Of a stretch of DNA of 37,702 bases, positions 1 to 37,415 are shown one piece after another. A program made the position numbers and the translations under genes. The stretch comes from a virus (taxonomy: Duplodnaviria > Heunggongvirae > Uroviricota > Caudoviricetes). The stretch is taken from IMG/VR virus record IMGVR_UViG_2657245588_000004. One strand, given 5' to 3'. The notes beneath the pieces are model-generated. The model worked only from the letters and a program-made list of their open reading frames with translations. It was not told the origin of the DNA and did not search any database. Positions within the stretch are counted from its first letter, which is position 1. The number at the start of each line of letters is the position of its first letter.

Positions 1-1053
1 TTACGGGGTAATGCCAACCGCTGCCGCCACTTTGTCGCCACTTGGCAGCGTTGCCAGAGGATTGAAACGGAGCGCCGTTTCTAGATGATCCGGTGCCAGA
101 TGTGCGTAACGCATAGTCATTTTTATATCGTGGTGTCCGAGAATTTTTTGTAAGGCCAGAATGTTTCCACCCGACATCATGAAGTGCGCCGCAAACGTAT
201 GGCGCAGAACGTGTGTGAGTTGACCGCGAGGGAGCACGATAGACGTTTTTTCCATCACGGATAAAAATTGAAAATAGCAGTCTGTGAAGAAATTGAACCC
301 ATCAAGCGCCATGATCTCTTCGTAAAGCTCTTTACTGATAGGGATGCTTCTGTTTTTCTTCCCCTTCGTTCTGACAAAGGTAATTCGGTATTTGGTCACC
401 TGTGAGCGGGTAAGATTTACGGCTTCACGCCAGCGTGCGCCTGTGCTTAAGCATATCTTAACTACCAGTGCCAGAATTGGGTCCTGACGTTTGCAATCAG
501 CCAGCAATTCAACAATCTGCTCATGGGTAAGCCATGCCATCTCTTTTTCTGCGATGGTGAATTTTCGCATGTTCTCCAGTGGGTTCGGATACGACCATTC
601 GCCCAGACGGGATAGTTCGCTAAAAACACTACTTAGATAGCTTTGCTCCAGGTTAATGGTGACCGGGCTTGCTCCTTTCTTCCATTTCTCGCTGAAGTAG
701 ATCTCGCCTGTCAGGCGTTTATCTCGATAGTGGGCAAACATTTTAGAGGTGAGATCGGTTGCAAGAGGATTGCCCAGAGCGTCAACCATCAACAGCAATT
801 TGTCATAGACATGCTGCCCAGCTGTCAGAGATTTACCATGTAGTTTGAACCATAGCTCAACCACGTCTTTCAGTGTTCGACGATCCACTGATTCACCCAG
901 CCAGGGCTTTGCTTCGGTTTCTTCCATCGTGTGGCGCTCAAAAGCCAGTGCTTCGCCTTTGGTAGCGAATTGTTTACGCACACGACGCCCACTTCGTCCG
1001 GCGGGGTAACATTCGCAAAGCCATTTCCCTGTGGTTAGTTTTCGTACTGCCAT
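1..1053 (-). CDS. int: Phage integrase, tyrosine recombinase (P2/186 Int-like)
   Basis: 350 aa; C-terminal catalytic region with HxxR (LRHTFAAHF) and terminal HDIKMTMRYAHL motif; ATG at 1053. Confidence 0.9.
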   Translation of the reverse strand: MAVRKLTTGKWLCECYPAGRSGRRVRKQFATKGEALAFERHTMEETEAKPWLGESVDRRTLKDVVELWFKLHGKSLTAGQHVYDKLLLMVDALGNPLATDLTSKMFAHYRDKRLTGEIYFSEKWKKGASPVTINLEQSYLSSVFSELSRLGEWSYPNPLENMRKFTIAEKEMAWLTHEQIVELLADCKRQDPILALVVKICLSTGARWREAVNLTRSQVTKYRITFVRTKGKKNRSIPISKELYEEIMALDGFNFFTDCYFQFLSVMEKTSIVLPRGQLTHVLRHTFAAHFMMSGGNILALQKILGHHDIKMTMRYAHLAPDHLETALRFNPLATLPSGDKVAAAVGITP

Positions 1054-1057
1054 AAAA

Positions 1058-1078
1058 AGCCCTCATATCAGAGGGCTA
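1058..1078 (-). other. Hairpin (gccctc/gagggc stem) followed by a U-run on the minus strand, directly abutting the int start codon and containing its GAGGG Shine-Dalgarno
   Basis: Inverted repeat agccctc..gagggct read directly; minus-strand T-run immediately precedes int ATG. Function (terminator vs translational control) is inferred. Confidence 0.35.
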
Positions 1079-1135: not shown

Positions 1136-2812
1136 CTAAGCAACATGTAGTTCATCGTTGGCGGAAGTGGCTGCTTTGCGCTCCTGCTCAATAGATAGAG
1201 ACTCTCTATATTCTTTCGCCTCTGCAAACATTGTCCAGTGGGCGTTGATGTTCATGTCTTCAATAACTGATTTGATTTCTTTTAAATTTACGTTAAAAAA
1301 CTCTTTTCGTGAGTTAATTTTATTGACCTGCTTTTCGTTGAAAACTTTATGCAGATGGTTTTCTAATGATGGTGCATCATCACTATAAATCATCGCATGA
1401 ACATCGAACGAAAAAGGAACACTAGCATCTCCGAGTTCACGAACACGATCAAGTGGTTCAAGGCGGCGTGTCATTCCAATTTTATATACATCTTCGCCAA
1501 ATGAACCAATATTACTAATGATATAGACGTGGCCTGATCTGGTTTGTTGAGCCATAGAAATAGCTCGTTGATTTTTAGCTTCAGCTTCTTCATATTTTAA
1601 CTGTAGTTCAGCTATTTTTTGCTCTAAAGCTAAGCGTTGTTCTTCATTTGCAAGCATAAGTTCTTTCGTTGCTTTATTTATAGCTTGCTGAATAGCTTTT
1701 TCTTCTTTTTCAGCTTCTTTTATCGCTTTTTCATATTCTCTACGAGCTCTTTCCTCTTCACGAAGCTGTTCTTTAATCCTTCTTTGCTCTTCTTTTTCTT
1801 CGAGCATAATTTCATTAACTGCTACACCCCATTTTAGCTCGTTGAGTCTTGCCTGAAGATAGATGTCACTTATTTTTGCGGACCTAAAGGCAGAGCCATT
1901 GTAATTTACTAGTTGAAATGCATCTTTTATTTCTTGGGAAAGTTTTCCAAAATTGTTGTGTTTGACTTTTGATAAAATACTGTCAACTCTTCCATTGAAG
2001 GCATCCAAAACAAAGTTTATGGCAGTATTACGCCTGTTTTGCTCAACATAATCACACGAAGCAGCTTTATTAGTTTTTATTAATGATTTGGTTAACTCTC
2101 TGGCTTTTTGTAATTCCTTGCCTGCATCTGTAAATTCATAATTTTCTGCCAGCTCATCAAGTACACTACGGTTAGGGATGATCCATTCATCACCATAACC
2201 TTCAATTTTATTTTTCATTGATTTTGCAACTGCTTCATATTTTTCTGCAAACTCTTTAGCTTCATATGCTGAACCAGCAATCTCCTTTGCTCTTTCTTCT
2301 GCATCAGAAATAATTTTTACTGCATTGTCATTAGCATTTGAGATTAGCTCATTTGCTTTATTATTAGCATTATCAAGACGTTCTTTGGCTTTCAGGCGTG
2401 CATCGCGAGCGTCTTTGGTGATTGCTATAGCTTCGCTATTAGCGTTGCTTATTGTCATCTGAGCTTGATAATTTGCTTCGTTTACTGTTTTAGCCGCCTT
2501 AATTTGGGCTTCATCTATTTTTTGCTTGGCTATTGAGTCCGCATTTTTTATCTTATTCTCTGCATCCATTACTGCGCTGTGCAATTCTTCGTATTGCCAC
2601 AATGGTGCTGCTCGCCCTTCAAGCTCTGATAATTCTCGTACGGTCTGTGCTAGTTTTTCTTGATTTTCAATCAGTTGGTTAGAAAGGGCTATGTTGTTAG
2701 CTGTCAGGTTATCTATAGCCGCTTTGTGTTTTTTACTTTGTTTAAATAATATTACAGCTAGAACAGGGGCGAGAAATGCTAATAAGAGTATAACGATGGC
2801 AAATGAATTCAT
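1136..2812 (-). CDS. Accessory protein: N-terminal TM helix, long coiled-coil, central DUF4041-like region, C-terminal GIY-YIG (T5orf172-type) nuclease-like domain
   Basis: 558 aa; hydrophobic N-terminus MNSFAIVILLLAFLAPVLAVILF; E/K/A-rich heptad-like stretches; C-terminus GHVYIISN..(10)..VYKIGMTRR fits the GIY-x10-YIG pattern; visibly AT-rich versus flanks. Family assignment from memory of motifs, not a search. Confidence 0.7.
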   Translation of the reverse strand: MNSFAIVILLLAFLAPVLAVILFKQSKKHKAAIDNLTANNIALSNQLIENQEKLAQTVRELSELEGRAAPLWQYEELHSAVMDAENKIKNADSIAKQKIDEAQIKAAKTVNEANYQAQMTISNANSEAIAITKDARDARLKAKERLDNANNKANELISNANDNAVKIISDAEERAKEIAGSAYEAKEFAEKYEAVAKSMKNKIEGYGDEWIIPNRSVLDELAENYEFTDAGKELQKARELTKSLIKTNKAASCDYVEQNRRNTAINFVLDAFNGRVDSILSKVKHNNFGKLSQEIKDAFQLVNYNGSAFRSAKISDIYLQARLNELKWGVAVNEIMLEEKEEQRRIKEQLREEERARREYEKAIKEAEKEEKAIQQAINKATKELMLANEEQRLALEQKIAELQLKYEEAEAKNQRAISMAQQTRSGHVYIISNIGSFGEDVYKIGMTRRLEPLDRVRELGDASVPFSFDVHAMIYSDDAPSLENHLHKVFNEKQVNKINSRKEFFNVNLKEIKSVIEDMNINAHWTMFAEAKEYRESLSIEQERKAATSANDELHVA

Positions 2813-2832
2813 TTTAAAATCCTTTTACTATA

Positions 2833-3429
2833 TTAATTCGAGACTATTGTACTTCTTATACAAGCAACCACTTCAATATCAGAAAATGCACATTCAAAGC
2901 TATTCTCTGCTGTTGTAATTTTAATCATTCCTTTAGGAAGCCTTGTGATTTTTCGAATGGAATAGGTTCCGTCGATATTGATTAACCAGTTTCCATCAAG
3001 TACTTCAGAAAATTTTTGATCACAAATGTATGTGACGAGTCCATCCTGAACAACAATTGGTGATGAAAGGTTTGCAGGAAGAAATGATGAATCGAAGACA
3101 TATGAACCGTCTTCAATCATTTTGCCTGCGGCAAGGCGAAACTTAACAAGCTCTTCTGTAGCTGCTGTCAGCGAGCTTTGCTTAAGGCCTTGTCCGGTAG
3201 TTAACCATTTGAGGGAGGTTCCTGTTTCAAGAGCACATTGGATTATCCAGTCAGCAGGAAATGTATCCCGCAAATACCTGTTCGCTAGTGTGCTTTTTGA
3301 TACTTCCAAGTGATCAGCTAAAGCCTGTCGTGTCGTAAAGCCATAGGCTTCGACTAATCGCTCAATCGCAGCCTTACCACCTTTATTGGGATTTATTTTG
3401 ATCTCACTTGGGTACTTTGATGTTGACAT
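2833..3429 (-). CDS. cI: CI-like lysogeny repressor (186-type, N-terminal HTH)
   Basis: 198 aa; HTH-like segment FTTRQALADHLEVSKSTLANRY; position between int and divergent Apl/CII genes. Confidence 0.75.
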   Translation of the reverse strand: MSTSKYPSEIKINPNKGGKAAIERLVEAYGFTTRQALADHLEVSKSTLANRYLRDTFPADWIIQCALETGTSLKWLTTGQGLKQSSLTAATEELVKFRLAAGKMIEDGSYVFDSSFLPANLSSPIVVQDGLVTYICDQKFSEVLDGNWLINIDGTYSIRKITRLPKGMIKITTAENSFECAFSDIEVVACIRSTIVSN

Positions 3430-5579: not shown

Positions 5580-6433
5580 GCACTATCCTGAAATGGGCGG
5601 GAAATAAAACCGCCATTATGCCAGAACTGAAAAAATACCTTCCTGCTGGCCCGCGACTGGTTGAACCTTTCGCGGGTTCCTGTGCTGTGATGATGGAAAC
5701 GGATTATCCCAGCTATCTGGTTGCGGATATTAATCCTGATTTAATCAACCTCTATAAAAAGGTTGCCGCTGATTGTGAATCGTTTATATCTCGCGCCAGA
5801 GTTTTATTTGAGATCGCAAACAGGGAGGTGGCTTATTACAACATAAGGCAGGAGTTTAACTGCTCAACTGAAATTACTGATTTCATGAAAGCGGTATATT
5901 TCCTGTATCTCAATCGTCACGGTTACCGTGGTTTATGTCGCTATAACAAGAGCGGGCATTTCAACATTCCCTACGGTAATTATAAAAATCCGTATTTCCC
6001 TGAAAAAGAACTTCGCACATTTGCAGAAAAAGCCCAGCGAGCAACGTTTATCTGCGCCAGCTTTGATGAAACGCTGGCGATGTTGAAGGCGGGAGATGTG
6101 GTGTATTGCGATCCGCCATATGACGGTACGTTTTCCGGCTATCACACTGATGGTTTCACTGAAGATGACCAGTATCACCTGGCATCCGTTCTTGAACATC
6201 GGTCATCAGAAGGACATCCGGTCATTGTTTCTAACAGTGACACATCCCTGATCCGTTCGCTGTATCGCAATTTTACTCACCACTATATCAAGGTAAAACG
6301 CAGCATCGGTGTGGCAGCTGGCGAGGGTAAATCAGCAACAGAAATCATTGCTGTTTCCGGGCCGCGCTGCTGGATGGGATTTGATTATTCGCGTGGCGTG
6401 GATAGTTCTGCCGTGTACGGAGTACGTGCATGA
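5576..6433 (+). CDS. dam: DNA adenine methyltransferase (Dam-like, N6-A MTase)
   Basis: 285 aa from ATG 5576 with GGAGG upstream; N-terminal LKWAGNK and catalytic DPPY motif (CDPPYDGT). Confidence 0.85.
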
Positions 6434-8841
6434 GTCATGCCGATATGAACAAGTGCTGCGGCTTTAACGAGGCTGCCGCAGCATTCTCATGGAACAGCCC
6501 GAAAAAGGCCATTAACCCTTATCTGGACCCGGCGGAAGTTGCGCCGGTTTCTACGCTTTCAAACCTGATCACTCTGTACGCTGCCGATAACGAGCAGGAA
6601 CAGTTGCGCCGCGAGGCACTGAGTGATCAGGTCTGGGAGCGTTATTTCTTTAATGAATCACGTGATCCTGTCCAGCGCGAAATGGAGCAGGATAAGCTCA
6701 TTAGCCGGGCAAAGCTGGCGCATGAGCAGCAGCGTTTTAATTCAGACATGGTCATTCTGGCGGACGTCAACGCCCAGCCTTCCAATATCAGCAAGCCGCT
6801 GATGCAACGTATTGAATACTTCAGCAGCCTGGGCAGGCCAAAGGCTTATTCCCGCTATTTACGTGAGACGATTAAGCCATGTCTGGAACGACTGGAGCAT
6901 GTACGCGACAGTCAGCTATCTGCATCTTTTCGCTTTATGGCAAGCCATGAAGGGCTGGACGGCCTGCTGATCCTGCCTGAAATGAGTCAGGATCAGGTGA
7001 AACGCCTGTCCACCCTGGTAGCTGCGCATATGAGTATGTGCCTTGATGCAGCTTGTGGTGATTTGTATGCCACCGATGACGTTAAGCCAGAAGAAATCCG
7101 CAAGACATGGGAAAAGGTGGCAGCGGAAACCCTGCGTCTGGATGTCATCCCACCTGCGTTTGAGCAACTCCGTCGGAAAAGAAACCGCCGTAAACCCGTG
7201 CCCTATGAACTCATTCCGGGTTCGCTGGCGCGTATGTTGTGCGCCGACTGGTGGTATCGGAAATTATGGAAGATGCGTTGCGAATGGCGGGAAGAGCAGT
7301 TGCGCGCTGTTTGCCTGGTCAGCAAAAAAGCATCTCCTTATGTCAGCTATGAAGCCGTGATGCATAAACGTGAGCAGCGCCGTAAGTCGCTGGAGTTTTT
7401 CCGTTCTCATGAACTGGTGAACGAAGACGGCGACACGCTGGACATGGAGGATGTGGTAAACGCCAGCAGCAGCAACCCTGCGCATCGCCGCAATGAGATG
7501 ATGGCCTGTGTTAAAGGTCTGGAGCTTATCGCGGAAATGCGCGGTGACTGCGCCGTTTTCTACACTATCACCTGTCCGTCGCGTTTCCATTCCACGCTAA
7601 ATAACGGCAGACCAAACCCGACCTGGACAAACGCGACGGTAAGACAAAGCAGCGATTATCTGGTCGGCATGTTTGCTGCATTTCGTAAGGCGATGCACAA
7701 AGCCGGGTTGCGCTGGTATGGCGTGCGGGTGGCTGAGCCGCATCATGATGGCACAGTTCACTGGCACCTGTTGTGTTTCATGCGCAAAAAAGACCGCCGT
7801 GCCATCACTGCATTACTGCGTAAGTTTGCCATCCGTGAAGACCGCGAGGAGCTGGGCAATAACACTGGGCCGCGCTTTAAGTCTGAGTTGATTAACCCGC
7901 GCAAAGGAACGCCGACAAGCTACATCGCGAAATATATCAGTAAGAACATTGACGGTCGTGGTCTGGCTGGCGAGATCAGCAAGGAAACGGGTAAATCTCT
8001 GCGTGATAACGCTGAATACGTGAATGCCTGGGCGTCTCTGCATCGTGTTCAGCAATTCCGCTTCTTTGGTATTCCGGGGCGTCAGGCTTACCGTGAACTT
8101 CGCTTGCTGGCTGGTCAGGCGGCAAGGCAACAGGGTGACAAAAAAGCAGGTGCGCCGGTACTGGATAACCCGCGTCTTGATGCCATTCTGGCTGCTGCTG
8201 ATGCTGGTTGTTTTGCCACCTACATCATGAAGCAGGGCGGCGTACTGGTTCCCCGTAAATATCACCTCATCAGAACCGCTTATGAAATCAACGAAGAGCC
8301 GACCGCCTATGGCGATCACGGCATTCGTATTTATGGCATCTGGTCACCCATTGCAGAGGGCAAGATCTGCACTCATGCAGTGAAGTGGAAAATGGTTCGT
8401 AAAGCCGTTGACGTTCAGGAGGCGGCAGCCCAGGGCGCTTGCGCCCCTTGGACTCGTGGCAATAACTGTCCCCTTGCTGAAAATTTGAACCAACAGGAGA
8501 AAGATAAATCAGCTGATGGGGACCCCAGAACGGACATTACCAGCATGGATGACAAGGAGTTGCACGATTACCTGCACAGTATGAACAAAAAAGAGCGCCG
8601 GGAACTGGCTGCAAGGTTACGCCTGGTGAAACCGAAACGGCGTAAAGACTACAAACAGCGAATTACAGACCATCAGCGACTGCAGCTCGTGTATGAGCTG
8701 AAGTCCAGAGGATTTGATGGCAGCGAGAAAGAGGTCGATTTACTCCTTCGCGGAGGCAGTATTCCGTCAGGAGCAGGCCTGCGTATCTTCTATCGGAACC
8801 AGCGTTTGCAAGAAGATGATCAGTGGCGGAACCTGTATTAA
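6430..8841 (+). CDS. A: Replication initiation endonuclease (P2 gpA-like, rolling-circle HUH)
   Basis: 803 aa; HUH-like VHWHLL and tyrosine motif YIAKYISK; position after early operon. Confidence 0.85.
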
Positions 8842-8994: not shown

Positions 8995-9183
8995 ATGCAG
9001 GACTATTTTTTGGAGTCTTTGAAGCTCCAGCGCATTGATTTTTTTCTTAAGCTTGTAGCGGCTAGTGAGTGTAGTGATGAAGAGAAGGGGCTGGCTCTGC
9101 AGTGGGTTTCTGAATTGACTGATGAACTCATGGCAAAAATCAGAACCCACGAATACAACCGCTCAATGGATGTCATCAGCTGA
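8995..9183 (+). CDS. Small SOS-module protein, possible Tum-like antirepressor N-terminal part
   Basis: 62 aa from ATG 8995 with AGGAGG upstream, downstream of the LexA box; function inferred from position only. Confidence 0.4.
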   Translation: MQDYFLESLKLQRIDFFLKLVAASECSDEEKGLALQWVSELTDELMAKIRTHEYNRSMDVIS

Positions 9184-9193
9184 GGTGACTTTT

Positions 9194-9427
9194 ATGCGCA
9201 TTGAAATAATGATCGATAAAGAGCAGAAGATTAGCCAGTCTACCCTGGACGCCCTTGAATCCGAGCTTTACCGCAATCTGCGCCCCCTGTATCCCAAAAC
9301 GGTAATTCGCATTCGCAAAGGTAGCTCTAACGGTGTGGAACTAACCGGACTGCAACTGGACGAAGAAAGAAAACAAGTGATGAAAATTATGCAGAAGGTG
9401 TGGGAAGACGACAGCTGGCTGCATTAA
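9194..9427 (+). CDS. DinI-family protein
   Basis: 77 aa; MRIEIMIDKEQ...IRKGSSNGVELTG...WEDDSWL resembles DinI (recalled); GAGGTGA RBS. Confidence 0.65.
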   Translation: MRIEIMIDKEQKISQSTLDALESELYRNLRPLYPKTVIRIRKGSSNGVELTGLQLDEERKQVMKIMQKVWEDDSWLH

Positions 9428-9650: not shown

Positions 9651-9736
9651 CGCGCGCAACTTGAGATAGTGTGATACTTATCTGAGAAATCTTAACAAGG
9701 TTCAATACAATACCCTTTCAAAAAAAGGGGAGTGTG

Positions 9737-10888
9737 ATGTTTGTAAAAAATAACTTTAATACAAATAATTTCGATGCGGAATTAGTTGAAGCGATTGGTA
9801 ATAGGCTGGAAAACAACCAATTTTCGGATGCAATACTTGCAGGAACCAAATATCTAACAACTTTGCTGCGTGAAAAAGGGCAATGTGAAGGGGATGGGGC
9901 TCAGCTTGTTGGTACTGTTTTGGGTGGACAATCACCTAGAATCCAAATTAATAGTCTTCAATCTGTATCAGAGCAGGACGAACAGCGCGGATTTGAAGCA
10001 CTATTAAGAGGCTACTATCAGTGTATAAGAAATCCAAGGACACATGACAATTTCCCTGATACAGAAGATTCCTGCATGAGAATATTGATCATGTTGGATA
10101 CTTTTATTAAGTATTTAAAAAGAGATGTTGCTGAGTTCGATTACACAGCAATTCTTGAAAGAATTTATGAGGTTCACTTTGTAAATAATTCTGATTATGC
10201 AGAAGCTTTAATATCACAAATTCCAGAAAAAAAACTACTAGATTTTTTCCAAAGTTTAATTTCTCGCTTTAATGAAAGGCCAACCAAGGAAATTGATTCT
10301 ATATTCAAAGCAATAAACCAACGCTTTTCAGGAGAGGAAGAAAAAGCCGCAATGCGGTTGCTAGGTGATGAGTTACGCAAGGCTAGCAATAATGTTGAGT
10401 TTGCTAATGTATTTAGAATAATTAAGCCGAGCGCATGGAGAAATCTTCCTGATGATGTTTTAATTAGAATGGAAAATATAATCATCGAAGAGTGCAAAAA
10501 AGGATATTTGGATTTCTATTCTGATGCGACCAAAGGAGCTATAGGAACATGGGGTAATACATTTGGTAGCAAATTTAAAAGAAGAGGTGATCTTGGTGAT
10601 GCTTTAATTGGATTGTTATATGATAGTTGGTATACGCAAAATTATGTTGCGAAATATTACGTTTTTTCAATCCCTTCTATCATTACTGATGATGTGAAAG
10701 TTAAGGAGTTAGCTGATGCTTTAGCTTATGCCACCATTGTAAATGGTGCTAAGCTTTTACGAACAAAATTGATTGATGCATGTAAAAATTATCCTGATAA
10801 GTTGAAAGAGCATCTTAGGGATGCTGTTCAGCAACGGATGGATAGTGATAAAAAATATGCGGAAGAATTATTAGGTCAAATAAGCTGA
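9737..10888 (+). CDS. Accessory protein with N-terminal HEPN-like region (Rx4H motif, TIGR02391/Ymh-like)
   Basis: 383 aa from ATG 9737 (track start 9734 is GTG); GGGGAG RBS; motif CIRNPRTHDNF (R-x4-H); visibly AT-rich; lies between candidate cos and portal gene. Confidence 0.65.
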   Translation: MFVKNNFNTNNFDAELVEAIGNRLENNQFSDAILAGTKYLTTLLREKGQCEGDGAQLVGTVLGGQSPRIQINSLQSVSEQDEQRGFEALLRGYYQCIRNPRTHDNFPDTEDSCMRILIMLDTFIKYLKRDVAEFDYTAILERIYEVHFVNNSDYAEALISQIPEKKLLDFFQSLISRFNERPTKEIDSIFKAINQRFSGEEEKAAMRLLGDELRKASNNVEFANVFRIIKPSAWRNLPDDVLIRMENIIIEECKKGYLDFYSDATKGAIGTWGNTFGSKFKRRGDLGDALIGLLYDSWYTQNYVAKYYVFSIPSIITDDVKVKELADALAYATIVNGAKLLRTKLIDACKNYPDKLKEHLRDAVQQRMDSDKKYAEELLGQIS

Positions 10889-10939: not shown

Positions 10940-11974
10940 CTAATCTAATTCATATGAGGTAAATTTAACCAGTTCTTCATTAAGTCCAATCCATGAGTTA
11001 ATTTCAGATATTCTGTGTTGTAGCGGAATTAACTCATTCCTGACAAAAACCTTACTAGCCTTTTCAACATCCCCAAACCCGCCAACATTACTAGGCATAA
11101 TCCCCATCATCTGCGGCGGTACACGGTGCGCTGCCATCATGTCATCCCGGCTCACGTTCTTGATGTTAAGAAACTCATCTTTTGCCGCCACCTCTGACAG
11201 CGGGATGATCTGAATCCCGTCTTTCTTTCCGTTGGGTGAGTACATAAACAAGTTGCGGAAGTTGCCCGGCCCTTTGGCGCTTTTCATCGCATTGCGGAGG
11301 TTGTTCACATCCTCCTGGTTCTGCGCGGCATCGGTCATGTACATGATGAAGCCTGCATGACTACCGTTAATGTAATATTTGCGGCGGAACAGCGTGGCGG
11401 ACTCGTTGAGCAAAGCGGATGGGATGGCAGAAAGATAGCCGGGCAGGCCGTAGATCTCCTGATTAATATCTGGTTCCATCAGATGAAAAATGCTGCCTTT
11501 CGTGAACTGATATGGCTGGGTTGTCATACCGTATTGCACAAACCAGTAGGTATCCAGGTCTAACCCGCGTCGGGTATATTTTGCCAGGGCAGGCTCAAGG
11601 GCGATAACTTCACCGAAGCGGTTCGTGCGTTTCTCCAGGTAGGCGTTACCAAATACCAGGTAGTCCTGCACAAAACGTGAAAAAGCCTGCTGGCTGAGCA
11701 GCGGGTGAGGGATATAGGTACTGGTCAGAATGTTGCACTTTACTGCAATCGGGGAACTGTGATGCACGGCAGCGCGGAAGGTGCGCGCCAGTCCGTCAAA
11801 GCTGACGGGCGGCTCATACCAACGGTCCATCTGTACGCATTCCACATAATCCAGCAGTTCTCGGCGGTCCAGAACAGGAACGGGATCGCCGAAGCTGAAT
11901 GCTTCGGCTGTAGTTTGACTTTTAAGCTGGATCTGTTTCGTCGCCGCAGCGCGGTTCTTCTTACTCTTTCCCAT
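10940..11974 (-). CDS. Q: Portal protein (P2 gpQ-like)
   Basis: 344 aa from ATG 11974 (track start 11977 is TTG); start overlaps terminase stop; leftward Q-P pair. Confidence 0.85.
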   Translation of the reverse strand: MGKSKKNRAAATKQIQLKSQTTAEAFSFGDPVPVLDRRELLDYVECVQMDRWYEPPVSFDGLARTFRAAVHHSSPIAVKCNILTSTYIPHPLLSQQAFSRFVQDYLVFGNAYLEKRTNRFGEVIALEPALAKYTRRGLDLDTYWFVQYGMTTQPYQFTKGSIFHLMEPDINQEIYGLPGYLSAIPSALLNESATLFRRKYYINGSHAGFIMYMTDAAQNQEDVNNLRNAMKSAKGPGNFRNLFMYSPNGKKDGIQIIPLSEVAAKDEFLNIKNVSRDDMMAAHRVPPQMMGIMPSNVGGFGDVEKASKVFVRNELIPLQHRISEINSWIGLNEELVKFTSYELD

Positions 11975-13740
11975 CAAAAAATCTCCACAATATTGCTGGT
12001 ATTGGCGGATTCGCCCTGCAGCGGTTCGTTAAACAGTGCGTGCATTGTTGCCCAGGCCAGATCGGCATGGCTGGCTTCTTCGCTGCGGCTGGCTTCATAG
12101 GTTGGGCGGTTGCCGCTGGCGGTGGTGGCGCGACGGATTGCCATAAATGACTGCGCTATGTCGGTGTGTCCGGCGTCAAACTCCAGACGACGGTGACTGA
12201 TAATGTCGTAGGCCTTGAGTACCAGGGCGTTTTTAACGTTGGGGTTGTAGACAAACTCCCGGACGGCTGGAAAAAACGCTTTCACGTTCTCGTAAACCCC
12301 GTGGCCGACACCTGTCGAGTCGATGCCGATGTAGGTCACGTTGTACTGTTCGGTCAGTTTTTTGATGGCGTCAGCCTGGGCGCGAAAGTCCATTCCGCGC
12401 CACTGGTGACGCTCAAGAATGCGGAACTTGCCGCCCGGCACGGCTGGCGGTGCCACCACCACGCATCCGGCGCTGTCGCCATTCTGCGTACCTTTCGCCG
12501 GGTCATAACCGATCCATACTTCGCGCCAGCCAAACGGGCGCAGGGCCAGTGCATGAAAGTCAGTCCAGACTTCCCAGCTGTCTACCATGCACGCCTGCAG
12601 CTCGCTGAGCGGGAACACGGACGCGAGATCGTCCACAAACTCGCACATCAGCAGGTTCTGGTATTCGTCCGGGCTGTACTCCATGCGCAACTGGTCAAGG
12701 TCGAACAGGTTACAGCCGCCGCGCACCGCATCTTCCACGGTGACTATCTGGCGGTATTGCCCGTCTGCGCACAGCAGGCCGGGGGCCAGATTGCTGTGGG
12801 ACAGGTCGATGTCCACCTTATCGGCTTTGTTGCGCCCACGGTTGAACAGCGCACCGGACCAGAACGGATAAGCACTGTGTGTCAGGCTGGATGGCGTGGA
12901 AAAATAGGTTTGTCGCCATTTTTTGTGAATAGCCATACCGGAAGCCACTTTGCGCAGCTCCTGGAATTTCGGTATCCAGAAATATTCATCCAGATACAGG
13001 TTGCCGTGGTAACTCTGGGCCGTGCGGGCATTGGTGCCGAGGAAGTAAAGCGTGGCCCCGTTGGGAAGCACCATCGGATCGCCTTTCAGCTCCACCTCCA
13101 CTTCTTTGGCGAAGTCGATGATGTACTGCTTAAAGACGTGGGCCTGTGCCTTACTGGCAGAAAGGAAAATCTGGTTACGTCCGGTAAGCAGGGCGTCAAT
13201 CAGGGCTTCACGGGCAAAATAGAAGGTCGCGCCGATCTGGCGTGACTTCAGCAGGTTGCGGATGCGGTTGGTTTTTCCGGCTTCCCACCAGTGGCGCTGG
13301 TAGTTGAACATGGAGGAATGGAAAATTTCTTCCAGCTTCTCAATCTGTTCATCGGTGAAAACATTCTTTTCAGGCTGACGGCGTGGGCCTTTGTTGCGGT
13401 TGGCGACGTTAGGGTTTAAGTCAGCTTCGTTGCCGCCATTGTTAAACTTGCCGATCCGCGCGTGGCGCTCCGACTGGCGCGCCAGCAGGTCAATCTCTTT
13501 GAAATCTTTCCCTTCTTTGTGCTCCTTCATGATGAGCTGGCAGTAGCGTGCGGCGGTGGTGAGCTGCATCTGATCCAGCGGCCCATAGTCACCCCACTTG
13601 TCGCGTTTTTTCCAGCTGTGAACGGTTGCAACTTTCTCGCCCAGCATTTCAGCAATGCGGGCTACGCGGTATCCCTGAAAGTACAGCAGCATGGCCTGCC
13701 GACGGGGATCGAGATCTGCGGGTGTCAGTGTGGTGTTCAT
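11974..13740 (-). CDS. P: Terminase large subunit / ATPase (P2 gpP-like)
   Basis: 588 aa; size and position divergent from the capsid operon; assignment by P2 synteny. Confidence 0.85.
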   Translation of the reverse strand: MNTTLTPADLDPRRQAMLLYFQGYRVARIAEMLGEKVATVHSWKKRDKWGDYGPLDQMQLTTAARYCQLIMKEHKEGKDFKEIDLLARQSERHARIGKFNNGGNEADLNPNVANRNKGPRRQPEKNVFTDEQIEKLEEIFHSSMFNYQRHWWEAGKTNRIRNLLKSRQIGATFYFAREALIDALLTGRNQIFLSASKAQAHVFKQYIIDFAKEVEVELKGDPMVLPNGATLYFLGTNARTAQSYHGNLYLDEYFWIPKFQELRKVASGMAIHKKWRQTYFSTPSSLTHSAYPFWSGALFNRGRNKADKVDIDLSHSNLAPGLLCADGQYRQIVTVEDAVRGGCNLFDLDQLRMEYSPDEYQNLLMCEFVDDLASVFPLSELQACMVDSWEVWTDFHALALRPFGWREVWIGYDPAKGTQNGDSAGCVVVAPPAVPGGKFRILERHQWRGMDFRAQADAIKKLTEQYNVTYIGIDSTGVGHGVYENVKAFFPAVREFVYNPNVKNALVLKAYDIISHRRLEFDAGHTDIAQSFMAIRRATTASGNRPTYEASRSEEASHADLAWATMHALFNEPLQGESANTSNIVEIF

Positions 13741-18851: not shown

Positions 18852-19248
18852 TAAAGCAGTGCCTTATGTCCGTAATAACCCGGACAAACTGCATCTGTTT
18901 GTGGATAACGGTTCGCTGGTTGCCACGGGGGCCAGCTCCATGTCATGGGAGTACCGCTACACCCTGAACGTGGTGATAGAGGATTTCAGTGGTGACCAGA
19001 ATCTGTTGATGGCCCCGGTTTTGCTGTGGCTGCGTGATAACCAGCCCGATGCCATCAATAATCCCGCTTTACGGGAAAAGTTATTCACCTTTGAGGTGGA
19101 TATTCTGCGCAACGATGTCTGTGATATCAGCCTTAACCTGCAACTGACGGAACGTGTGCTGGTCAGCACTGACGGCACAGTGTCCAGCGTTGAAGCTGTA
19201 GCGGAACCCGATGAACCTGAAGAAATGTGGACGGTGAAACGTGGCTGA
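18817..19248 (+). CDS. R: Tail completion protein (gpR-like)
   Basis: GTG 18817 preceded by AGGAG; synteny. Confidence 0.7.
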   Translation: MNKPQSLRHALNKAVPYVRNNPDKLHLFVDNGSLVATGASSMSWEYRYTLNVVIEDFSGDQNLLMAPVLLWLRDNQPDAINNPALREKLFTFEVDILRNDVCDISLNLQLTERVLVSTDGTVSSVEAVAEPDEPEEMWTVKRG

Positions 19249-19687
19249 ATTGCAGAAGGTGGACGACTGGCTGAGTGCCTTGCTGGCGAATCTGGAGCCA
19301 GCCGCAAGAAGCCGTATGATGCGCCAACTGGCGCAGGAACTTCGCCGGACACAGCAGCAGAATATCAGGATGCAGCGCAACCCTGACGGCAGCAGCTATG
19401 AACCGCGACGGGTAACAGCACGCAGTAAAAAAGGCCGCATTAAACGTCAGATGTTTGCGAAGCTGCGCACCACAAAATACCTGAAAACTGCCGCCAGCGC
19501 CGATTCTGCCAGCGTGCAGTTTGAAGGCAAGGTGCAGCGCATTGCCCGCGTTCATCACTACGGCCTGCGTGATCGCGTCAGTCGCAAAGGACCTGAGGTC
19601 CGTTACGCAGAGCGTAAGCTATTGGGTATCCACGATAAAGAATATTATCAAATCAAGGATACCCTATTTGAATGGTTATCTACATAA
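19241..19687 (+). CDS. S: Tail completion protein (gpS-like)
   Basis: 148 aa; synteny; GTG start overlapping R stop. Confidence 0.75.
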   Translation: MAELQKVDDWLSALLANLEPAARSRMMRQLAQELRRTQQQNIRMQRNPDGSSYEPRRVTARSKKGRIKRQMFAKLRTTKYLKTAASADSASVQFEGKVQRIARVHHYGLRDRVSRKGPEVRYAERKLLGIHDKEYYQIKDTLFEWLST

Positions 19688-19712: not shown

Positions 19713-20564
19713 TTATTTCATTTCGTGTGGCATATTTATGGCTTTAATTTTTTCGTGGTAATGATTAAACTCAATATGAGTATTGGTAAAATTGGATTCA
19801 AATGTATTCATTAAATTGGAATATAATGATTCATATGATAAGGATACTTTTTTTCCATTTTTTTCTGCAGTTGTGCTAATGTACCTATGTACTGCAGAAA
19901 AAAGAAAATGACCTCTAAGCCACTTTCTGTATTCTATCGATTTTGATTTGAAAGATGAATCGATGTTATCTGGTTCCACACCTAATTTTTCAATGATGGT
20001 GTTTTTGTAACTCGTGATTTTTTGCTCGCAAATTTCATTTGATTTTCTAGATTTCATGAAACGATCTGCACTGTCACCAATAACTGAAATGCCTTTTCTA
20101 TAAATATGATTGTATATATCAAGTTTTATTAGGGGTTCCATTTTGGTATAAAAGTCTTCTGTCCAAGAATCGACGTTGACATCGTTCATTATCTTTTGAG
20201 GTAATTTTCCTAGAGTTTTTATTGCCTTATATATGCCTGTTTTGTCAATAAACGTGTTTTCGATGGAGTGCCCATAAGTTTTTACAATGCGACTATCAGC
20301 GTTTTCCTCATTTTCAAATGTAGTGAAGTCTGCATCACATGCAATTATAATTTGAAGATCTTCATCAGTAACTCTATCAATATATTTTTTTAATTCTTCA
20401 CAGCCGCCAACATCTTTGATTTCAACCTTTAATGAACTAGCTTTATTAAAGATGATTTCCCAAAAGCAAATATCATCTGGGCCTTCAACATAAACCATGG
20501 CTTCAGCTTGGTAAAATAAATTCATTACATTTTCTGCTTCGGCAGAATAATGGAAATCATCCAT
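19713..20564 (-). CDS. Toprim-like (DUF4435/RloB-like) partner of the ATPase; AriB/AbiLii-like
   Basis: About 283 aa from ATG 20564 (alternatives 20594, 20648); N-terminal VYVEGPDDICFWEII then IIACDADF (E..DxD Toprim-like); 8-nt overlap with upstream ATPase stop; AT-rich. Confidence 0.65.
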   Translation of the reverse strand: MDDFHYSAEAENVMNLFYQAEAMVYVEGPDDICFWEIIFNKASSLKVEIKDVGGCEELKKYIDRVTDEDLQIIIACDADFTTFENEENADSRIVKTYGHSIENTFIDKTGIYKAIKTLGKLPQKIMNDVNVDSWTEDFYTKMEPLIKLDIYNHIYRKGISVIGDSADRFMKSRKSNEICEQKITSYKNTIIEKLGVEPDNIDSSFKSKSIEYRKWLRGHFLFSAVHRYISTTAEKNGKKVSLSYESLYSNLMNTFESNFTNTHIEFNHYHEKIKAINMPHEMK

Positions 20565-21816
20565 GAACCAATTTCTCCATATCAAAGATTGCATTTCGAT
20601 ATTTAGAAGCCACTTCTGGTGAATGCGTAGCGGCGATAATTTGCGCATTAGGATTAAGTTGTTTGATTGCAGGTATTATTTTTCGTTGCCATGCAATATG
20701 TAGCGATAATTCTGGTTCATCAGTAAGATAGATGAAAGGTTTGTTTTGCTGTAGCAAAGTTTCAATAAAAAGAATTAATAGCTGTTTTTCACCAGACGAT
20801 AAATTACTATGGCTAATCGGCCCATGCTCGTTTTCTATTACTAGCTCACCGGAGATAAAATTAAATTTTTTATCGGTTATGAACTCATGTAATGTTTCTA
20901 AAAATAGATTTATAGGAAGAAATATGTTTTTTATTTTCTCCTCGGATTTTAAAGACATCTTTATAATTCTTTGCGTCTTTCGTAATGCCTCAAATGATCT
21001 GTAATCTACATTTAAAATATTTCTGTTATTTTTTTCTGCAAGTCGTAATTCTTCAAATGTTTTGGCAATAGATTCAACGTGAAAGTTAATCTTCTTTCTG
21101 ACATCACTATCAAAAGCTCCAAGCTGAGAATATGCAGCTATTAAATTTCTACGTTCTTTTTCTTTATCAAAAGAAAAGTTAAATGTGTCATCGATACCAT
21201 CTTCTTTACTATAAAGAATAGAAGCAAGAACCTCTTTCTGTAATATTGCAGAAACATCACGAGCTCTTTGTGATAAATAAAGTTGATATTTTGTTAGGTT
21301 CTGCAATAATTGTTCTAATCGGTAATCAACAGGGTTGATTAATTTTGAGCCATATTTGTCTCTGATTTCAAAATCTTCACCGCTTCTAAGTCGGTAAACT
21401 GATAGAGAAGATAAAGCAACTAATTTATCTAACTCTAACTTAAGTTTTTCAACGTCTTCCTGATATTTTCTCCTCATATATATAGGTAGTCTACGATCTT
21501 CAAAGGATCTGATAATATATTTCTTTCTAGAAATTGTATATTCAAACGTAGGCAAAGCTTTAGTTATGTCAAATTTACTCACAACTTTTATTGTTTTAGT
21601 TTTGCTTCCTTCTTTTATTTTTATTGTTACATTATCAAAACTATTCTCATTTAGTGATTCGAGTTCTAATGCCAGAACTGAGTGAAGAATATTCATAAAG
21701 GTTGTTTTACCGGTCCCATTTCGACCAATAATAATATTTACATCTTCATTAAATGAACATGATGCATTTAGTCTTCCCCAAAAACCTTCAATCTTGACAC
21801 TAGATAATCTAAACAT
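20557..21816 (-). CDS. ABC-type ATPase (AAA_15/21-like), AriA/AbiLi/OLD-N-terminal-like
   Basis: 419 aa; Walker A GRNGTGKTT, signature-like LSSGEKQ, Walker B FIYLTDEPELSLH, H-loop ATHSPE; AAGGA RBS. Confidence 0.8.
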   Translation of the reverse strand: MFRLSSVKIEGFWGRLNASCSFNEDVNIIIGRNGTGKTTFMNILHSVLALELESLNENSFDNVTIKIKEGSKTKTIKVVSKFDITKALPTFEYTISRKKYIIRSFEDRRLPIYMRRKYQEDVEKLKLELDKLVALSSLSVYRLRSGEDFEIRDKYGSKLINPVDYRLEQLLQNLTKYQLYLSQRARDVSAILQKEVLASILYSKEDGIDDTFNFSFDKEKERRNLIAAYSQLGAFDSDVRKKINFHVESIAKTFEELRLAEKNNRNILNVDYRSFEALRKTQRIIKMSLKSEEKIKNIFLPINLFLETLHEFITDKKFNFISGELVIENEHGPISHSNLSSGEKQLLILFIETLLQQNKPFIYLTDEPELSLHIAWQRKIIPAIKQLNPNAQIIAATHSPEVASKYRNAIFDMEKLVHG

Positions 21817-21852
21817 AGGAATCCTTTATTTAGTCCATGAGTAAATGCACTT

Positions 21853-21870
21853 TGTATCATAACTGGCACA
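21853..21870. promoter_or_regulatory. TGT-N12-ACA dyad, candidate late promoter activator site upstream of V
   Basis: TGTatcataactggcACA read directly, centred about 56 bp upstream of V ATG. Confidence 0.4.
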
Positions 21871-21916
21871 AAACTAAAGAGTTTTTTTATCAATCTTATC
21901 TCGGCATGATTAAATT

Positions 21917-22495
21917 ATGAACGCACAATTAACCGAAATCATGCGCCTTATCACCAACCTGATCCGCACTGGTGTAGTCACCGAAGTGGACCGGGAACAC
22001 TGGCTTTGTCGGGTGAAAACGGGCGACCTTGAAACCAACTGGATTAACTGGCTGACGCTGCGCGCGGGTAATGCCCGCACATGGTGGCGACCATCGGAAG
22101 GTGAGCAGGTGGTGCTGCTGAGTCTGGGCGGCAATCTGGAAACCGCCTTTGCGCTGCCCGCTGTATATTCGAATCAGTTCGCACCACCGTCGGCGTCGGT
22201 GGACGCCTGTGTGACAGAACATCCTGACGGTGGCTGGTTTGAATACGAACCCGCTACCGGGCGCTGGTATGTCAGGGGAATCAAATCCATGGTCATTGAA
22301 GCTGCCGACAACATCACCCTGAAAACCAGTGAGTTTGTACTGGAGGCTGACCGCACACGCATTAACAGCGAAGTAGTGATCAATGGTGGTGTTACCCAGG
22401 GCGGCGGTGCAATGAGTTCTAACGGAATTGTGGTTGATGCACATCAGCATACTGGCGTCCTGAAAGGCGGCGACACAACCGGAGGCCCGGTATGA
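21917..22495 (+). CDS. V: Baseplate spike protein (gpV-like)
   Basis: 192 aa; synteny V-W-J-I-H. Confidence 0.8.
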   Translation: MNAQLTEIMRLITNLIRTGVVTEVDREHWLCRVKTGDLETNWINWLTLRAGNARTWWRPSEGEQVVLLSLGGNLETAFALPAVYSNQFAPPSASVDACVTEHPDGGWFEYEPATGRWYVRGIKSMVIEAADNITLKTSEFVLEADRTRINSEVVINGGVTQGGGAMSSNGIVVDAHQHTGVLKGGDTTGGPV

Positions 22496-22851
22496 CGCTT
22501 TATAGCGGGATGAACAATACCAGCGGTAAAGCCATTACTGATATTGACCATCTGCGCCAGTCGGTGCGGGACATTTTGCTGACGCCGCAGGGTAGCCGCA
22601 TTGCCCGTCGGGAATATGGTTCCCTGCTGTCGGCACTGATAGACCAGCCACAAAATCCGGCGTTACGCCTGCAGGTCATGTCGGCTGTGTATGTGGCACT
22701 GAGTCGCTGGGAGCCACGGCTGACGCTGGATTCCATCACTATTAACAGCAATTTTGACGGTTCAATGGTGGTGGAGCTGACCGGGCGGCGGAATAACGGT
22801 GTGCCTGTGTCCCTTTCCGTATCAACAGGAGCAGAGAATGGCAGTGATTGA
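22492..22851 (+). CDS. W: Baseplate wedge protein (gpW-like, gp25-like)
   Basis: 119 aa; synteny. Confidence 0.8.
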   Translation: MTLYSGMNNTSGKAITDIDHLRQSVRDILLTPQGSRIARREYGSLLSALIDQPQNPALRLQVMSAVYVALSRWEPRLTLDSITINSNFDGSMVVELTGRRNNGVPVSLSVSTGAENGSD

Positions 22852-23746
22852 CCTTTCGCAGTTGCCTGCACCGCAGATTGTGGATGTGCCGGACTTTGAG
22901 ACGCTGCTTGCCGAACGCAAGGCAGAATTTGTGGCGCTTCATCCGAAAGATGAGCAGGAAGCAGTGATCCGCACGCTGGAACTGGAATCTGAACCAGTCA
23001 CCAAATTGTTGCAGGAGAACGCTTACCGTGAGTTGCTTCTGCGCCAGCGCATTAACGAAGCCGCGCAGGCGGTGATGGTGGCTTACGCGATGGGCGGCGA
23101 TCTTGACCAGCTCGCTGCCAACTACAACGTGAAACGCCTGACGGTGACGCCTGCTGATAATGACGCTGTGCCGCCCGTTGCGGCTGTGATGGAAAGCGAT
23201 GAAGCGTTACGCCTGCGTGTGCCTGCAGCCTTTGAAGGGCTTTCGGTTGCGGGGCCAACTGCCGCTTATGAATTTCATGCCCGAAGCGCCGACGGTCGGG
23301 TGGCGGATGCCAGTGCAACCAGCCCGGCACCTGCAGAGGTGGTGCTGACTGTCCTTAGCCGCGAAGGCGACGGAACTGCAGAAAAAGACTTGCTGGATGT
23401 GGTGGAGAACGCCCTGAACAGTGAGAACGTCCGCCCGGTGGCTGACCGTCTGACGGTTCGCAGCGCAGAAATCATCCCGTACCGAGTGGAAGCCACCATT
23501 TTTCTTTATCCGGGACCGGAAGCAGAGCCGGTAATGGCAGCGGCAAAAGCCAGCCTGCAGAAGTACATCGCCAGTCAGACGCGTCTTGGTCGGGATATTC
23601 GCCGTAGCGCCATCTTTGCCGCCCTGCATGTTGAGGGTGTGCAGCGTGTGGAGCTGGCTTCCCCTCTGGCGGATGTGGTCCTGAACAAAACACAGGCGGC
23701 ATCATGTACGCAGTGGAGCGTAACCAACGGAGGAACGGATGAATAG
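22838..23746 (+). CDS. J: Baseplate assembly protein (gpJ-like)
   Basis: 302 aa from ATG 22838 with AGGAG upstream. Confidence 0.8.
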   Translation: MAVIDLSQLPAPQIVDVPDFETLLAERKAEFVALHPKDEQEAVIRTLELESEPVTKLLQENAYRELLLRQRINEAAQAVMVAYAMGGDLDQLAANYNVKRLTVTPADNDAVPPVAAVMESDEALRLRVPAAFEGLSVAGPTAAYEFHARSADGRVADASATSPAPAEVVLTVLSREGDGTAEKDLLDVVENALNSENVRPVADRLTVRSAEIIPYRVEATIFLYPGPEAEPVMAAAKASLQKYIASQTRLGRDIRRSAIFAALHVEGVQRVELASPLADVVLNKTQAASCTQWSVTNGGTDE

Positions 23747-35082: not shown

Positions 35083-36768
35083 TTATCCTAATCCTGGCCA
35101 TACCATGACGATGATTGTCCCTGCCAGCGTCAGCAGGACGTTGGCGATTGCATAGGTGCCCGCATAGCCCAGCGCCGGGATGTTACTGCGAGCTGTATCA
35201 CTGATGATCTCCATTGCCGGCGCGCAGGTACGTGCGCCCATCATTGCGCCGAACAACAGCGCGCGGTTCATTCGCAATACATAAGCACCGAACAAGAAAC
35301 AGATAACCACGGGCACCAGACTGACAATCAATCCGGCAATCAACATCTGACCGCCAATCGCGCCCAGGCCGTTATTAATACCGCTACCGGCGCTCAGACC
35401 AACGCCTGCCATAAACACCATCAAGCCGAACTCTTTCACCATGCTTAATGCACCCTGCGGAATGTAACCGAAGGTCGGGTGGTTAGCACGCATAAAGCCC
35501 AGCATAATTCCGGCGAATAACAACCCGGCAGCGTTCCCCATGCCGAAACTGAATGTGCTGAACTGGAAGGTGATCATCCCGATCATCAGCCCAATAACAA
35601 AGAAGGCGCAGAATGCCAGCAGGTCAGTGACCTGGCTGTGAATCGAGATAAAGCCGATGCGATCGGCGATGGTTTTTACGCGGCGGGCATCGCCGCTGAC
35701 TTGTAAAACGTCACCTTTGTTAAGCACGACGTTGTCATCTATCGGCATCTCAATCTGGCTACGAATGACGCGGTTAAGGAAGCAACCGTGATCGGTCAAC
35801 TTCAGTTGTGCGAGACGTTTACCTACAGCGTTATGGTTTTTAACGACCACTTCTTCAGTGACGATACGCATGTCGAGAAGGTCACGATCGAAAACTTCTT
35901 TACCGTTACGGAAGCTGGGATCGAGTCGGGCATGGGCGTCGGGATAGCCTACCAACGCTATTTCATCGCCCATTTGTAGCACGGCATCACCGTCTGGATT
36001 TGCCAGAATCCCGTTACGTCGAATACGTTCAATGTAGCAGCCGGTTTGTCGATAAATACCCAGTTCACGCAGATTTTTGCCGTCGGTCCAGGCCACCAGT
36101 TCCGGGCCGACGCGATAGGCGCGGATCACCGGTAAATAAACCTTACGGTTGGCATCAGTGTCCAGGCCACGTTCGCGGGCGATTTGCTGGGCGCTGGTCT
36201 GTAAGTCCTGATGCTGCAATTTCGGCAAGTAACGCGCACCAACAATCAAACTCACCAGACCGATTAAATAGGTTAAGGCATACCCGAGGCTCAGATTATC
36301 CAGTGCCAGTGAGAGCTGCCTGCTTTCCATGCCGGAATGACGCAGTGTATCGCCAGCACCGACCAGAACCGGTGTCGACGTCATAGAGCCTGCTAACATA
36401 CCGGCCGTCAGGCCAATATCCCAGCCAAACAGCTTACCTAACCCTAAGGCGATCACCAGCGCACTGCCAACCATCACCAGTGCTAACATTAGGTAATTTT
36501 TCCCATCGCGAAAAAAAATGGAAAAAAAGTTCGGTCCGGCTTCGACCCCGACGCAGAAAATAAACAGCATAAAGCCAAGATTAAGCGCATCGGTGTTAAT
36601 GCTGAAATGTTGTTGGCCTAATAACAGCGATACGACTAAAACGCCAATGGAATTACCCAGTTGGATCGAACCAAGTCGTAACTTTCCGAGACATAGCCCA
36701 AGCGCGAGGACCACAAATAATAACAGAATGTAATTCCCATTTAACAATTCGGCGACGTTTATATTCAC
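35083..36768 (-). CDS. ybjL: Host putative transport protein, YbjL-like (AAE transporter family)
   Basis: 561 aa; polytopic membrane N- and C-terminal halves with a central soluble region; recognised from memory as E. coli YbjL; GTG start. Confidence 0.85.
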
Positions 36769-37037: not shown

Positions 37038-37415
37038 GTGAAACATAAACAACGTTGGGCGGGGGCAATCTGCTGTTTTGTCCTCTTCATTGTGGTGTGC
37101 CTTTTTCTGGCGACGCACATGAAAGGCGCTTTTCGGGCTGCCGGGCATCCTGAAATCGGCTTGCTATTTTTCATTCTTCCTGGAGCAGTCGCCAGCTTCT
37201 TTTCACAGCGTAGAGAAGTCCTGAAACCTCTGTTTGGCGCAATGCTGGCGGCACCCTGTTCGATGCTCATTATGCGGCTGTTTTTTTCACCGACGCGCTC
37301 ATTCTGGCAAGAGCTGGCATGGTTACTAAGCGCGGTGTTCTGGTGTGCGCTGGGGGCACTGTGTTTCTTATTTATCAGTAGTTTGTTTAAACCACAGCAC
37401 AGAAAAAATCAGTAA
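37038..37415 (+). CDS. ybjM: Host inner membrane protein, YbjM-like
   Basis: 125 aa; four hydrophobic segments; AGGAGG RBS, GTG start; between ybjL and grxA as in E. coli K-12 (recalled). Confidence 0.75.
   Translation: MKHKQRWAGAICCFVLFIVVCLFLATHMKGAFRAAGHPEIGLLFFILPGAVASFFSQRREVLKPLFGAMLAAPCSMLIMRLFFSPTRSFWQELAWLLSAVFWCALGALCFLFISSLFKPQHRKNQ

Follow-up and report, generated by a model that had tools for sequence, protein, structure and literature searches.

A predicted anti-phage gene of the SNIPE (PD-lambda-1) family located between cI and int in a 186-like prophage

The window analyzed here is the whole stretch of 37,702 nucleotides held under the IMG/VR record IMGVR_UViG_2657245588_000004, a virus of the Caudoviricetes. 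At its left end, three genes follow one another on the minus strand: a tyrosine integrase gene of 350 aa (int, 1..1053; Pfam Int_N and Phage_integrase), an ORF of 558 aa with an ATG start (1136..2812, stop codon at 1136-1138) and a CI repressor gene of 198 aa (cI, 2833..3429; Pfam Phage_CI_repr at 8e-32 and Phage_CI_C at 4e-27). The ORF is located downstream of cI at a distance of 20 bp and upstream of int at a distance of 82 bp. An original prediction, made from the DNA letters, had described a 558-aa ORF between a repressor and an integrase gene on the same strand, and this arrangement is real. Only the span that was given, 1136-2832, has to be trimmed at one end, as the ORF itself extends to 2812 and the remaining positions are those of the spacer to the CI stop codon. 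The AT-richness pointed out at the time is also evident from the base composition, with a GC content of 36.9% for the 558-aa gene compared to 51.2% for the remaining prophage; the values for cI and int are 40.2% and 48.8%, respectively. An AT-rich gene of this kind may be silenced, for example by H-NS.

The 20-bp spacer between cI and the 558-aa gene (2813..2832, minus strand) contains a Shine-Dalgarno sequence (AAGGA) at a distance of 8 nt from the ATG, and both the spacing and the core of the spacer, AAAAGGATTT, recur in relatives from Klebsiella, Salmonella and E. coli HZ13. No terminator-like site was found between cI and the 558-aa gene, and no promoter of its own was detected for the latter by a promoter scan, which returned fewer sites than expected from shuffled sequences. 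In front of the int ATG lies a GC-rich hairpin followed by a run of T residues (1058..1077, minus strand; AGCCCTC-TGATAT-GAGGGCT and then TTTTT), with the Shine-Dalgarno sequence of int situated in the 3' arm. This hairpin is kept in relatives with changes confined to the loop, and since prophages without the 558-aa gene are homologous up to approximately positions 1115-1135, it belongs to the int side of the locus, where it may limit either read-through into int or int translation. In phage 186 (NC_001317), cI (22433-23011) directly abuts int (21423-22433) within the annotated pL/pE lysogenic operon, just as the original prediction had stated. The position of the 558-aa gene inside the lysogenic gene block, flanked by cI and int on the same strand, is likewise as claimed, and from this layout it is reasonable to infer that the gene is transcribed together with cI in the lysogen.

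The encoded protein starts with a single hydrophobic helix (aa 4-23, 2744..2803, minus strand; FAIVILLLAFLAPVLAVILF) whose Kyte-Doolittle mean over 19 residues is 3.16, with the basic stretch KQSKKHK (2723-2743) directly behind it. A second membrane span was not found in the 558-aa protein, with all other Kyte-Doolittle windows at or below 1.6, and the positive-inside rule predicts an N-out/C-in topology. The helix is followed by a variable helical or coiled-coil stalk (aa 24-254, 2051..2743, minus strand) that is rich in heptads. Coiled-coil propensity was assessed with a crude heptad score relative to shuffled sequences, and this score exceeded the 99th percentile of the shuffles at aa 73-204 and aa 354-423. 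The stalk further gave weak matches to DivIVA and to V-ATPase-E stalk-like sequences; the NCBIfam matches to DivIVA/Wag31, SMC and V-ATPase E are below threshold, reflect coiled-coil character only and were discarded.

The middle of the protein contains the DUF4041 core (Pfam PF13250, since renamed SNIPE; aa 267-322, 1847..2014, minus strand), which is matched over the full profile with an E-value of 3.1e-12 and 46.6 bits (cut-off 27), and the surrounding region (aa 261-330) has a net charge of +4. It is connected through a charged helical linker (aa 323-425, 1538..1846, minus strand) to a C-terminal T5orf172/MUG113 domain of the GIY-YIG type (aa 427-520, 1253..1534, minus strand). In an AlphaFold2 model built on an alignment of 78 diverse representatives (pLDDT 93.4), unbroken helices span aa 316-387 and aa 390-425, so that the linker, which includes the second heptad region, has the shape of a helical hairpin. 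An earlier model of aa 255-558, based on 24 sequences of 87-99% identity, reached a pLDDT of 50.5 and was dropped. The C-terminal assignment rests on Pfam matches to T5orf172 (aa 427-520, 3e-17) and MUG113 (aa 443-520, 4e-20), and these matches, like that to DUF4041, exceed the curated Pfam cut-offs. The transmembrane helix, the coiled-coils, the DUF4041 middle region and the C-terminal nuclease-like domain are therefore all present as originally described, and the Pfam search that had been proposed as a check returns T5orf172 in the C-terminal part and DUF4041 in the middle. The GIY/YIG motif also stands, with the exception of its proposed x10 spacing, as 12 residues separate Y430 (in 'HVY') from Y443 (in 'YKIG'). 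In the AlphaFold2 model, the nuclease domain follows a beta-beta-alpha-beta-alpha order, and the best globular matches in a Foldseek search against the PDB are Slx1 GIY-YIG nucleases, although their E-values (0.35-0.56) are not significant. Searches of PDB chains by sequence and by profile did not find a GIY-YIG entry; the matches that they gave to Rho GEF, haemagglutinin HA2 and Hbl-L1 were set aside as coiled-coil noise. Residues of the catalytic type are invariant across the 78 diverse homologues, namely Y430, K444, G446, R449, R450, H472, E484 (codon 1361-1363), N497 and N500.

With regard to family membership, sequence comparison makes the gene a diverged member of the already characterized SNIPE (PD-lambda-1) anti-phage family. 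The PADLOC PD-Lambda-1 model PDLC03976 matches aa 106-550 over model positions 36-481 of 491 with an E-value of 3.1e-120, a second PADLOC model, PDLC03977, matches at 4.9e-116, and phrog_1847 matches at 1e-132. The order and spacing of the domains are as published for PD-lambda-1, where DUF4041 occupies aa 197-252 and T5orf172 aa 357-448 of a 500-aa protein, with a constant shift of +70. The precomputed Pfam label of the gene is PF13250:SNIPE, while RefSeq names it either 'DUF4041 domain-containing protein' or 'SNIPE associated domain-containing protein'. The family is large, with 1358 representatives of 50%-identity clusters at E<=1e-30, and is variable in the length of the N-terminal part; a hydrophobic N-terminal segment occurs in 111 of 145 complete representatives. 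The labels 'chromosome segregation ATPase' and 'V-ATPase subunit H' that some records carry were rejected; no ATPase domain was detected. In the GenBank records ON470620 and OM835953, the former label is a misannotation that calls for correction.

PD-lambda-1 was recovered from E. coli ECOR26 by functional selection against lambda (RCP76574.1, 1503 nt, 500 aa; Vassallo et al. 2022, PMC9519451) and was subsequently renamed SNIPE and characterized (Saxton et al., Nature 2026, PMC13190303). As the SNIPE reference, we used a 500-aa E. coli protein encoded in a lambdoid prophage (L008:6805-8307), which contains all nine residues named in the SNIPE paper (E223, N250, L253, W257, E264, K305, I308, T319 and E414). 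SNIPE and the 558-aa protein are both prophage-encoded single-gene products that share an N-terminal transmembrane helix with a basic flank, a helical stalk, DUF4041, a long helical linker and a C-terminal GIY-YIG/T5orf172 nuclease domain. BLASTP aligns the two proteins over 293 aa (aa 265-555 of the 558-aa protein) with 49% identity and an E-value of 1e-76. This identity is distributed very unevenly, amounting to 75% in the nuclease domain and 47% in the linker, but to 25% in the DUF4041 core and 28% in the C-terminal tail. The catalytic glutamate is kept, with SNIPE E414 aligning to E484, whereas the positions that tune SNIPE toward the tape-measure protein differ (E223 to S292, N250 to Q320 and W257 to K327). 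No BLAST similarity to SNIPE was found over the N-terminal ~260 aa. Within the SNIPE family, the nuclease is conserved, DUF4041 less so and the N-terminal adapter is highly variable (PMC13190303), and the unalignable N-terminal half of the 558-aa protein fits this description. The protein is 58 aa longer than SNIPE overall, with ~70 added residues in the stalk after the transmembrane helix. The genomic settings differ too: a near-identical copy of SNIPE is flanked by ren and the nin region of a lambdoid prophage, and the gene studied here by cI and int of a 186-like myovirus. Because the parts used for recognition, the DUF4041 core and the N-terminal region, have diverged, the target range of SNIPE cannot be transferred to the 558-aa protein. 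Nor should its activity be taken for granted, since two homologues from Streptococcus thermophilus that are 98.5% identical had opposite outcomes, one of them being inactive (10.1101/2024.10.22.618286).

Escherichia phage vB_EcoM-813R9 (ON470620, Peduoviridae) matches the window with an identity of 100% and Klebsiella phage KP12 with one of 95.9%, and both phage records label the SNIPE gene 'chromosome segregation ATPase'. In a survey of 5426 complete E. coli genomes, int-related DNA was present in 1135, and megablast detected the SNIPE gene in 164 of these genomes with this integrase type. The cI allele of the window was found at a coverage of at least 80% in 165 genomes, that is, in the 164 with the SNIPE gene and in HZ13, which carries a diverged cI (82% DNA identity) beside a more diverged 558-aa SNIPE gene at another chromosomal site. 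Prophages with the same integrase and other cI alleles fill the slot differently, either with a 63-aa ORF or with IS4, an ASCH protein and two hypotheticals, and in Klebsiella phage 4LV2017 it holds a 349-aa hypothetical. Contigs from Klebsiella and Salmonella show exactly this arrangement of CI (198 aa), 20 bp, SNIPE (558 aa), 82 bp and int, which is also found in another E. coli lineage. The 558-aa frame is intact in Escherichia, Klebsiella, Citrobacter, Salmonella and Enterobacter, with an amino-acid identity to the window copy of 82-85% across genera, similar to that of the neighbouring products (81-87% for cI, 90-93% for int, 88-89% for cox and 78-88% for cII). A recent insertion was rejected on these grounds, as the divergence of the SNIPE gene across genera keeps pace with that of cI, cox, cII and int. 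Among the SNIPE orthologues, aa 1-105 are least conserved (56-68%) and conservation peaks in DUF4041, the linker and the nuclease (87-95%), which points to purifying selection on the functional core. The gene is thus optional across the phage family, yet an old and fixed companion of one immunity type. The description as variable cargo holds in comparison with phage 186, in which the gene is missing, and across the family (164/1135), and the low GC content fits it as well; it has to be qualified for the one cI allele, to which the gene is fixed (~165/165 E. coli genomes) and with which, as with int, it has diverged jointly. PARIS and a HEPN-like gene are found in this prophage too, at known P2 hotspots.

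The mechanism of the characterized SNIPE is known in considerable detail (PMC13190303). SNIPE is an inner-membrane nuclease with an experimentally proven N-out/C-in topology that cuts siphovirus DNA during injection, and its defence depends on DUF4041 as well as on E414, the catalytic residue of the GIY-YIG domain. The transmembrane helix anchors the protein constitutively, so that the nuclease stays clear of the chromosome, and SNIPE without this helix is highly toxic, with the chromosome being cut. Recognition resides in the N-terminal region, through association with ManYZ, and in DUF4041, through the DNA and the tape-measure protein, with both ManYZ and the tape-measure protein associating with SNIPE. 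Lambda DNA is cut on injection, but prophage DNA is not cut after induction. The defence is direct and non-abortive, as infected cells survive at high MOI, unlike those of the Abi control PD-lambda-3. Many siphoviruses are affected, compared to 0 myoviruses and 0 podoviruses of the BASEL set. At the family level, the proposal of a single-gene anti-phage determinant agrees with these studies, with members tested in E. coli (PMC9519451, PMC13190303) and in S. thermophilus (10.1101/2024.10.22.618286). The proposal of a membrane sensor coupled to a nuclease effector fits only loosely, as the transmembrane helix of SNIPE is an anchor and recognition lies in the N-terminal region and in DUF4041.

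Against this background, the gene is in our estimation quite likely to be a diverged SNIPE orthologue that acts as an optional defence gene in the cI-SNIPE-int lysogenic block of a 186-like (Peduoviridae) prophage and works by homology with SNIPE. The lysogen would produce the protein alongside CI, and an N-out/C-in membrane anchor would hold the nuclease at the membrane and off the chromosome. Upon injection by a superinfecting phage, the N-terminal region and DUF4041 would engage the injection machinery, that is, a host inner-membrane partner and the tape-measure protein, as well as the entering DNA, after which the GIY-YIG-type domain would cut this DNA during entry and the cell would survive. 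The carrier phage would remain unharmed because its own DNA is already inside, in line with the sparing of resident and induced prophage DNA by SNIPE.

A different assignment of targets has a small chance of being correct. It holds that the protein excludes superinfecting P2/186-like myoviruses of other immunity types, with the diverged DUF4041 and the longer stalk reading the tape-measure protein or injection complex, and that the linkage to cI is functional and provides a second layer of immunity. The constant association of the gene with one cI allele and their co-divergence (cI 81-87%, SNIPE 82-85%) would fit such a role, as would the tape-measure-contact residues, which are unlike those of SNIPE; moreover, in our reading of PMC13190303, the BASEL panel that was tested did not contain P2-like temperate phages. 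However, the myoviruses that were included in that panel were all insensitive to SNIPE, the other tested family members hit siphoviruses, and the distance of 20 bp to cI is the simplest explanation of the linkage. That the cI-linked 558-aa subfamily as a whole differs from SNIPE in target range or membrane partner, with heteroimmune P2/186-like myoviruses as a possible example, is similarly improbable.

It is very unlikely that the protein is an abortive or toxic effector, in which sensing at the membrane would release or activate the nuclease against host DNA and the infected cell would die. The toxicity of SNIPE lacking its transmembrane helix and the divergence of the sensing parts would accommodate such a scheme, but full-length SNIPE protects directly, and the 558-aa protein shares the SNIPE architecture with its membrane anchor in place. 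The abortive-infection option that the original prediction had offered is therefore contradicted for the characterized member, in which the DNA is cut at injection and the infected cells survive (PMC13190303). Finally, the least probable reading is that the gene has decayed or fallen silent and travels with cI as a passenger devoid of present function, as the low GC content, the occasional broken copies (interrupted by ISVsa5 in DETEC-S560 and truncated in strain 500111, among few such genomes) and the one inactive member of the near-identical S. thermophilus pair are countered by a frame that is intact across five genera at 82-85% identity and by catalytic residues that are invariant in 78 homologues.

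With the assignment to a diverged SNIPE orthologue, the finding is mainly a closed one: the gene can be recognized as belonging to a defence family with a mechanism published in 2026, and it is located in a slot that is known for defence cargo. The novelty implied by the original prediction does not hold, as publications already cover the family, its mechanism and the defence cargo in the cI-int interval of P2-related phages, and standard tools detect the gene. What the locus does offer is a naturally occurring case of a SNIPE homologue that is apparently wired into a lysogenic operon (cI-SNIPE-hairpin-int), and the diverged DUF4041 together with the N-terminal variant could help to map SNIPE specificity. 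In addition, a single prophage carries three defence cargoes, SNIPE, PARIS and the HEPN-like gene. If the 558-aa subfamily did exclude heteroimmune myoviruses, it would represent a second immunity layer that is functionally coupled to one repressor type.

Several known systems resemble the locus in part. A defence hotspot between cI and int has been described in P2-related Vibrio phages (K139-like) (Rousset et al. 2022). The same slot holds alternative defence cargo there, and other genes occupy it in the E. coli relatives of the prophage described here, whereas the cargo of this prophage is fixed to one cI allele instead of being freely shuffled. In the searched text, the papers on this hotspot do not name SNIPE specifically as a gene of the slot, and the terms 'SNIPE' and 'PD-Lambda-1' have 0 occurrences in the main text of the preprint. 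The lambda rexAB genes, to which the original prediction had compared the arrangement, similarly represent a defence locus directly downstream of the repressor gene and placed for expression in the lysogen, but they have no sequence relationship with SNIPE, which is a direct-defence nuclease. RexAB is a two-protein abortive system that depolarizes the membrane. Zorya and Kiwa are multi-protein systems with unrelated components and no homology to SNIPE, but, like SNIPE, they are membrane-localized and act on DNA at the site of injection (PMC12904381).

The phage records ON470620.1 and OM835953.1 in GenBank both label the SNIPE-family gene a "chromosome segregation ATPase". The protein has no detectable ATPase domain, and the label probably stems from the likeness of its coiled coils to SMC proteins. 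Two instances of loss of the gene are seen: in Escherichia coli DETEC-S560 (NZ_CP116094.1), in the region that matches positions 1100-2832 of the window, the gene is split by an insertion of ISVsa5 (IS4-like), and in strain 500111 it is reduced to 57%.

Between this gene and int lies a conserved hairpin (1058-1077, minus strand; AGCCCTC-loop-GAGGGCT followed by a T-run), which ends 4 nt upstream of the int ATG and holds the Shine-Dalgarno sequence of int (GAGGG) within its 3' arm. Changes in the hairpin among relatives are confined to the loop. Upstream of it, within 1078-1135, a promoter-like TTGAYY-N17-TTAAAT sequence is likewise conserved and received no call in the promoter scan. The hairpin could act as a terminator or attenuator, or could serve in the translational control of int.

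Elsewhere in the window, an island of 31-36% GC carries a PARIS-like gene pair (19713-21816, minus strand), flanked by genes on the tail-completion side (ORF 19241-19687) and by an ORF on the baseplate side (21917-22495). The first gene encodes a 419-aa AAA_21/AAA_15 ATPase that matches the PADLOC model for AriA (6e-40), and the second encodes a 311-aa DUF4435 protein that matches AriB (3e-24). The two ORFs as listed overlap by approximately 90 nt, and the true AriB start therefore probably lies further downstream. A low-GC ORF of 384 aa (9734-10888, plus strand) occupies the classic P2 hotspot, with the replication endonuclease gene (6430-8841) on one side and the portal gene (10940-11977, minus strand) on the other. 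Its N-terminal part (aa 12-126) matches Pfam Hypoth_Ymh (3e-23), PADLOC PD-Lambda-3_B (2e-14) and also Aga_HEPN, whereas no hit was obtained for the remaining ~250 aa at the C terminus. The ORF is possibly a HEPN-type defence gene. Just past the replication gene lies a DinI-like ORF (9122-9427, plus strand; Pfam 1e-22), labelled "SOS induction modulator" in ON470620.

The right end of the window holds two host genes, encoding an Asp-Al_Ex/TrkA_C permease (35083-36768, minus strand) and YbjM (37038-37415, plus strand), and the prophage therefore stops near 34.6-35.0 kb. On the left, the window begins inside the prophage, at int, with rcdA/ybjJ just beyond it (locus L001). In related prophages of E. 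coli NCTC8623 and MB06022, additional genes separate int from the attachment site (L005:4636-5619 and L006:4541-5769, respectively), with a DUF4917 protein encoded in one prophage and a Panacea-domain protein plus a hypothetical protein in the other. This arrangement agrees with the reported minor defence slot of P2 "between integrase and att site".
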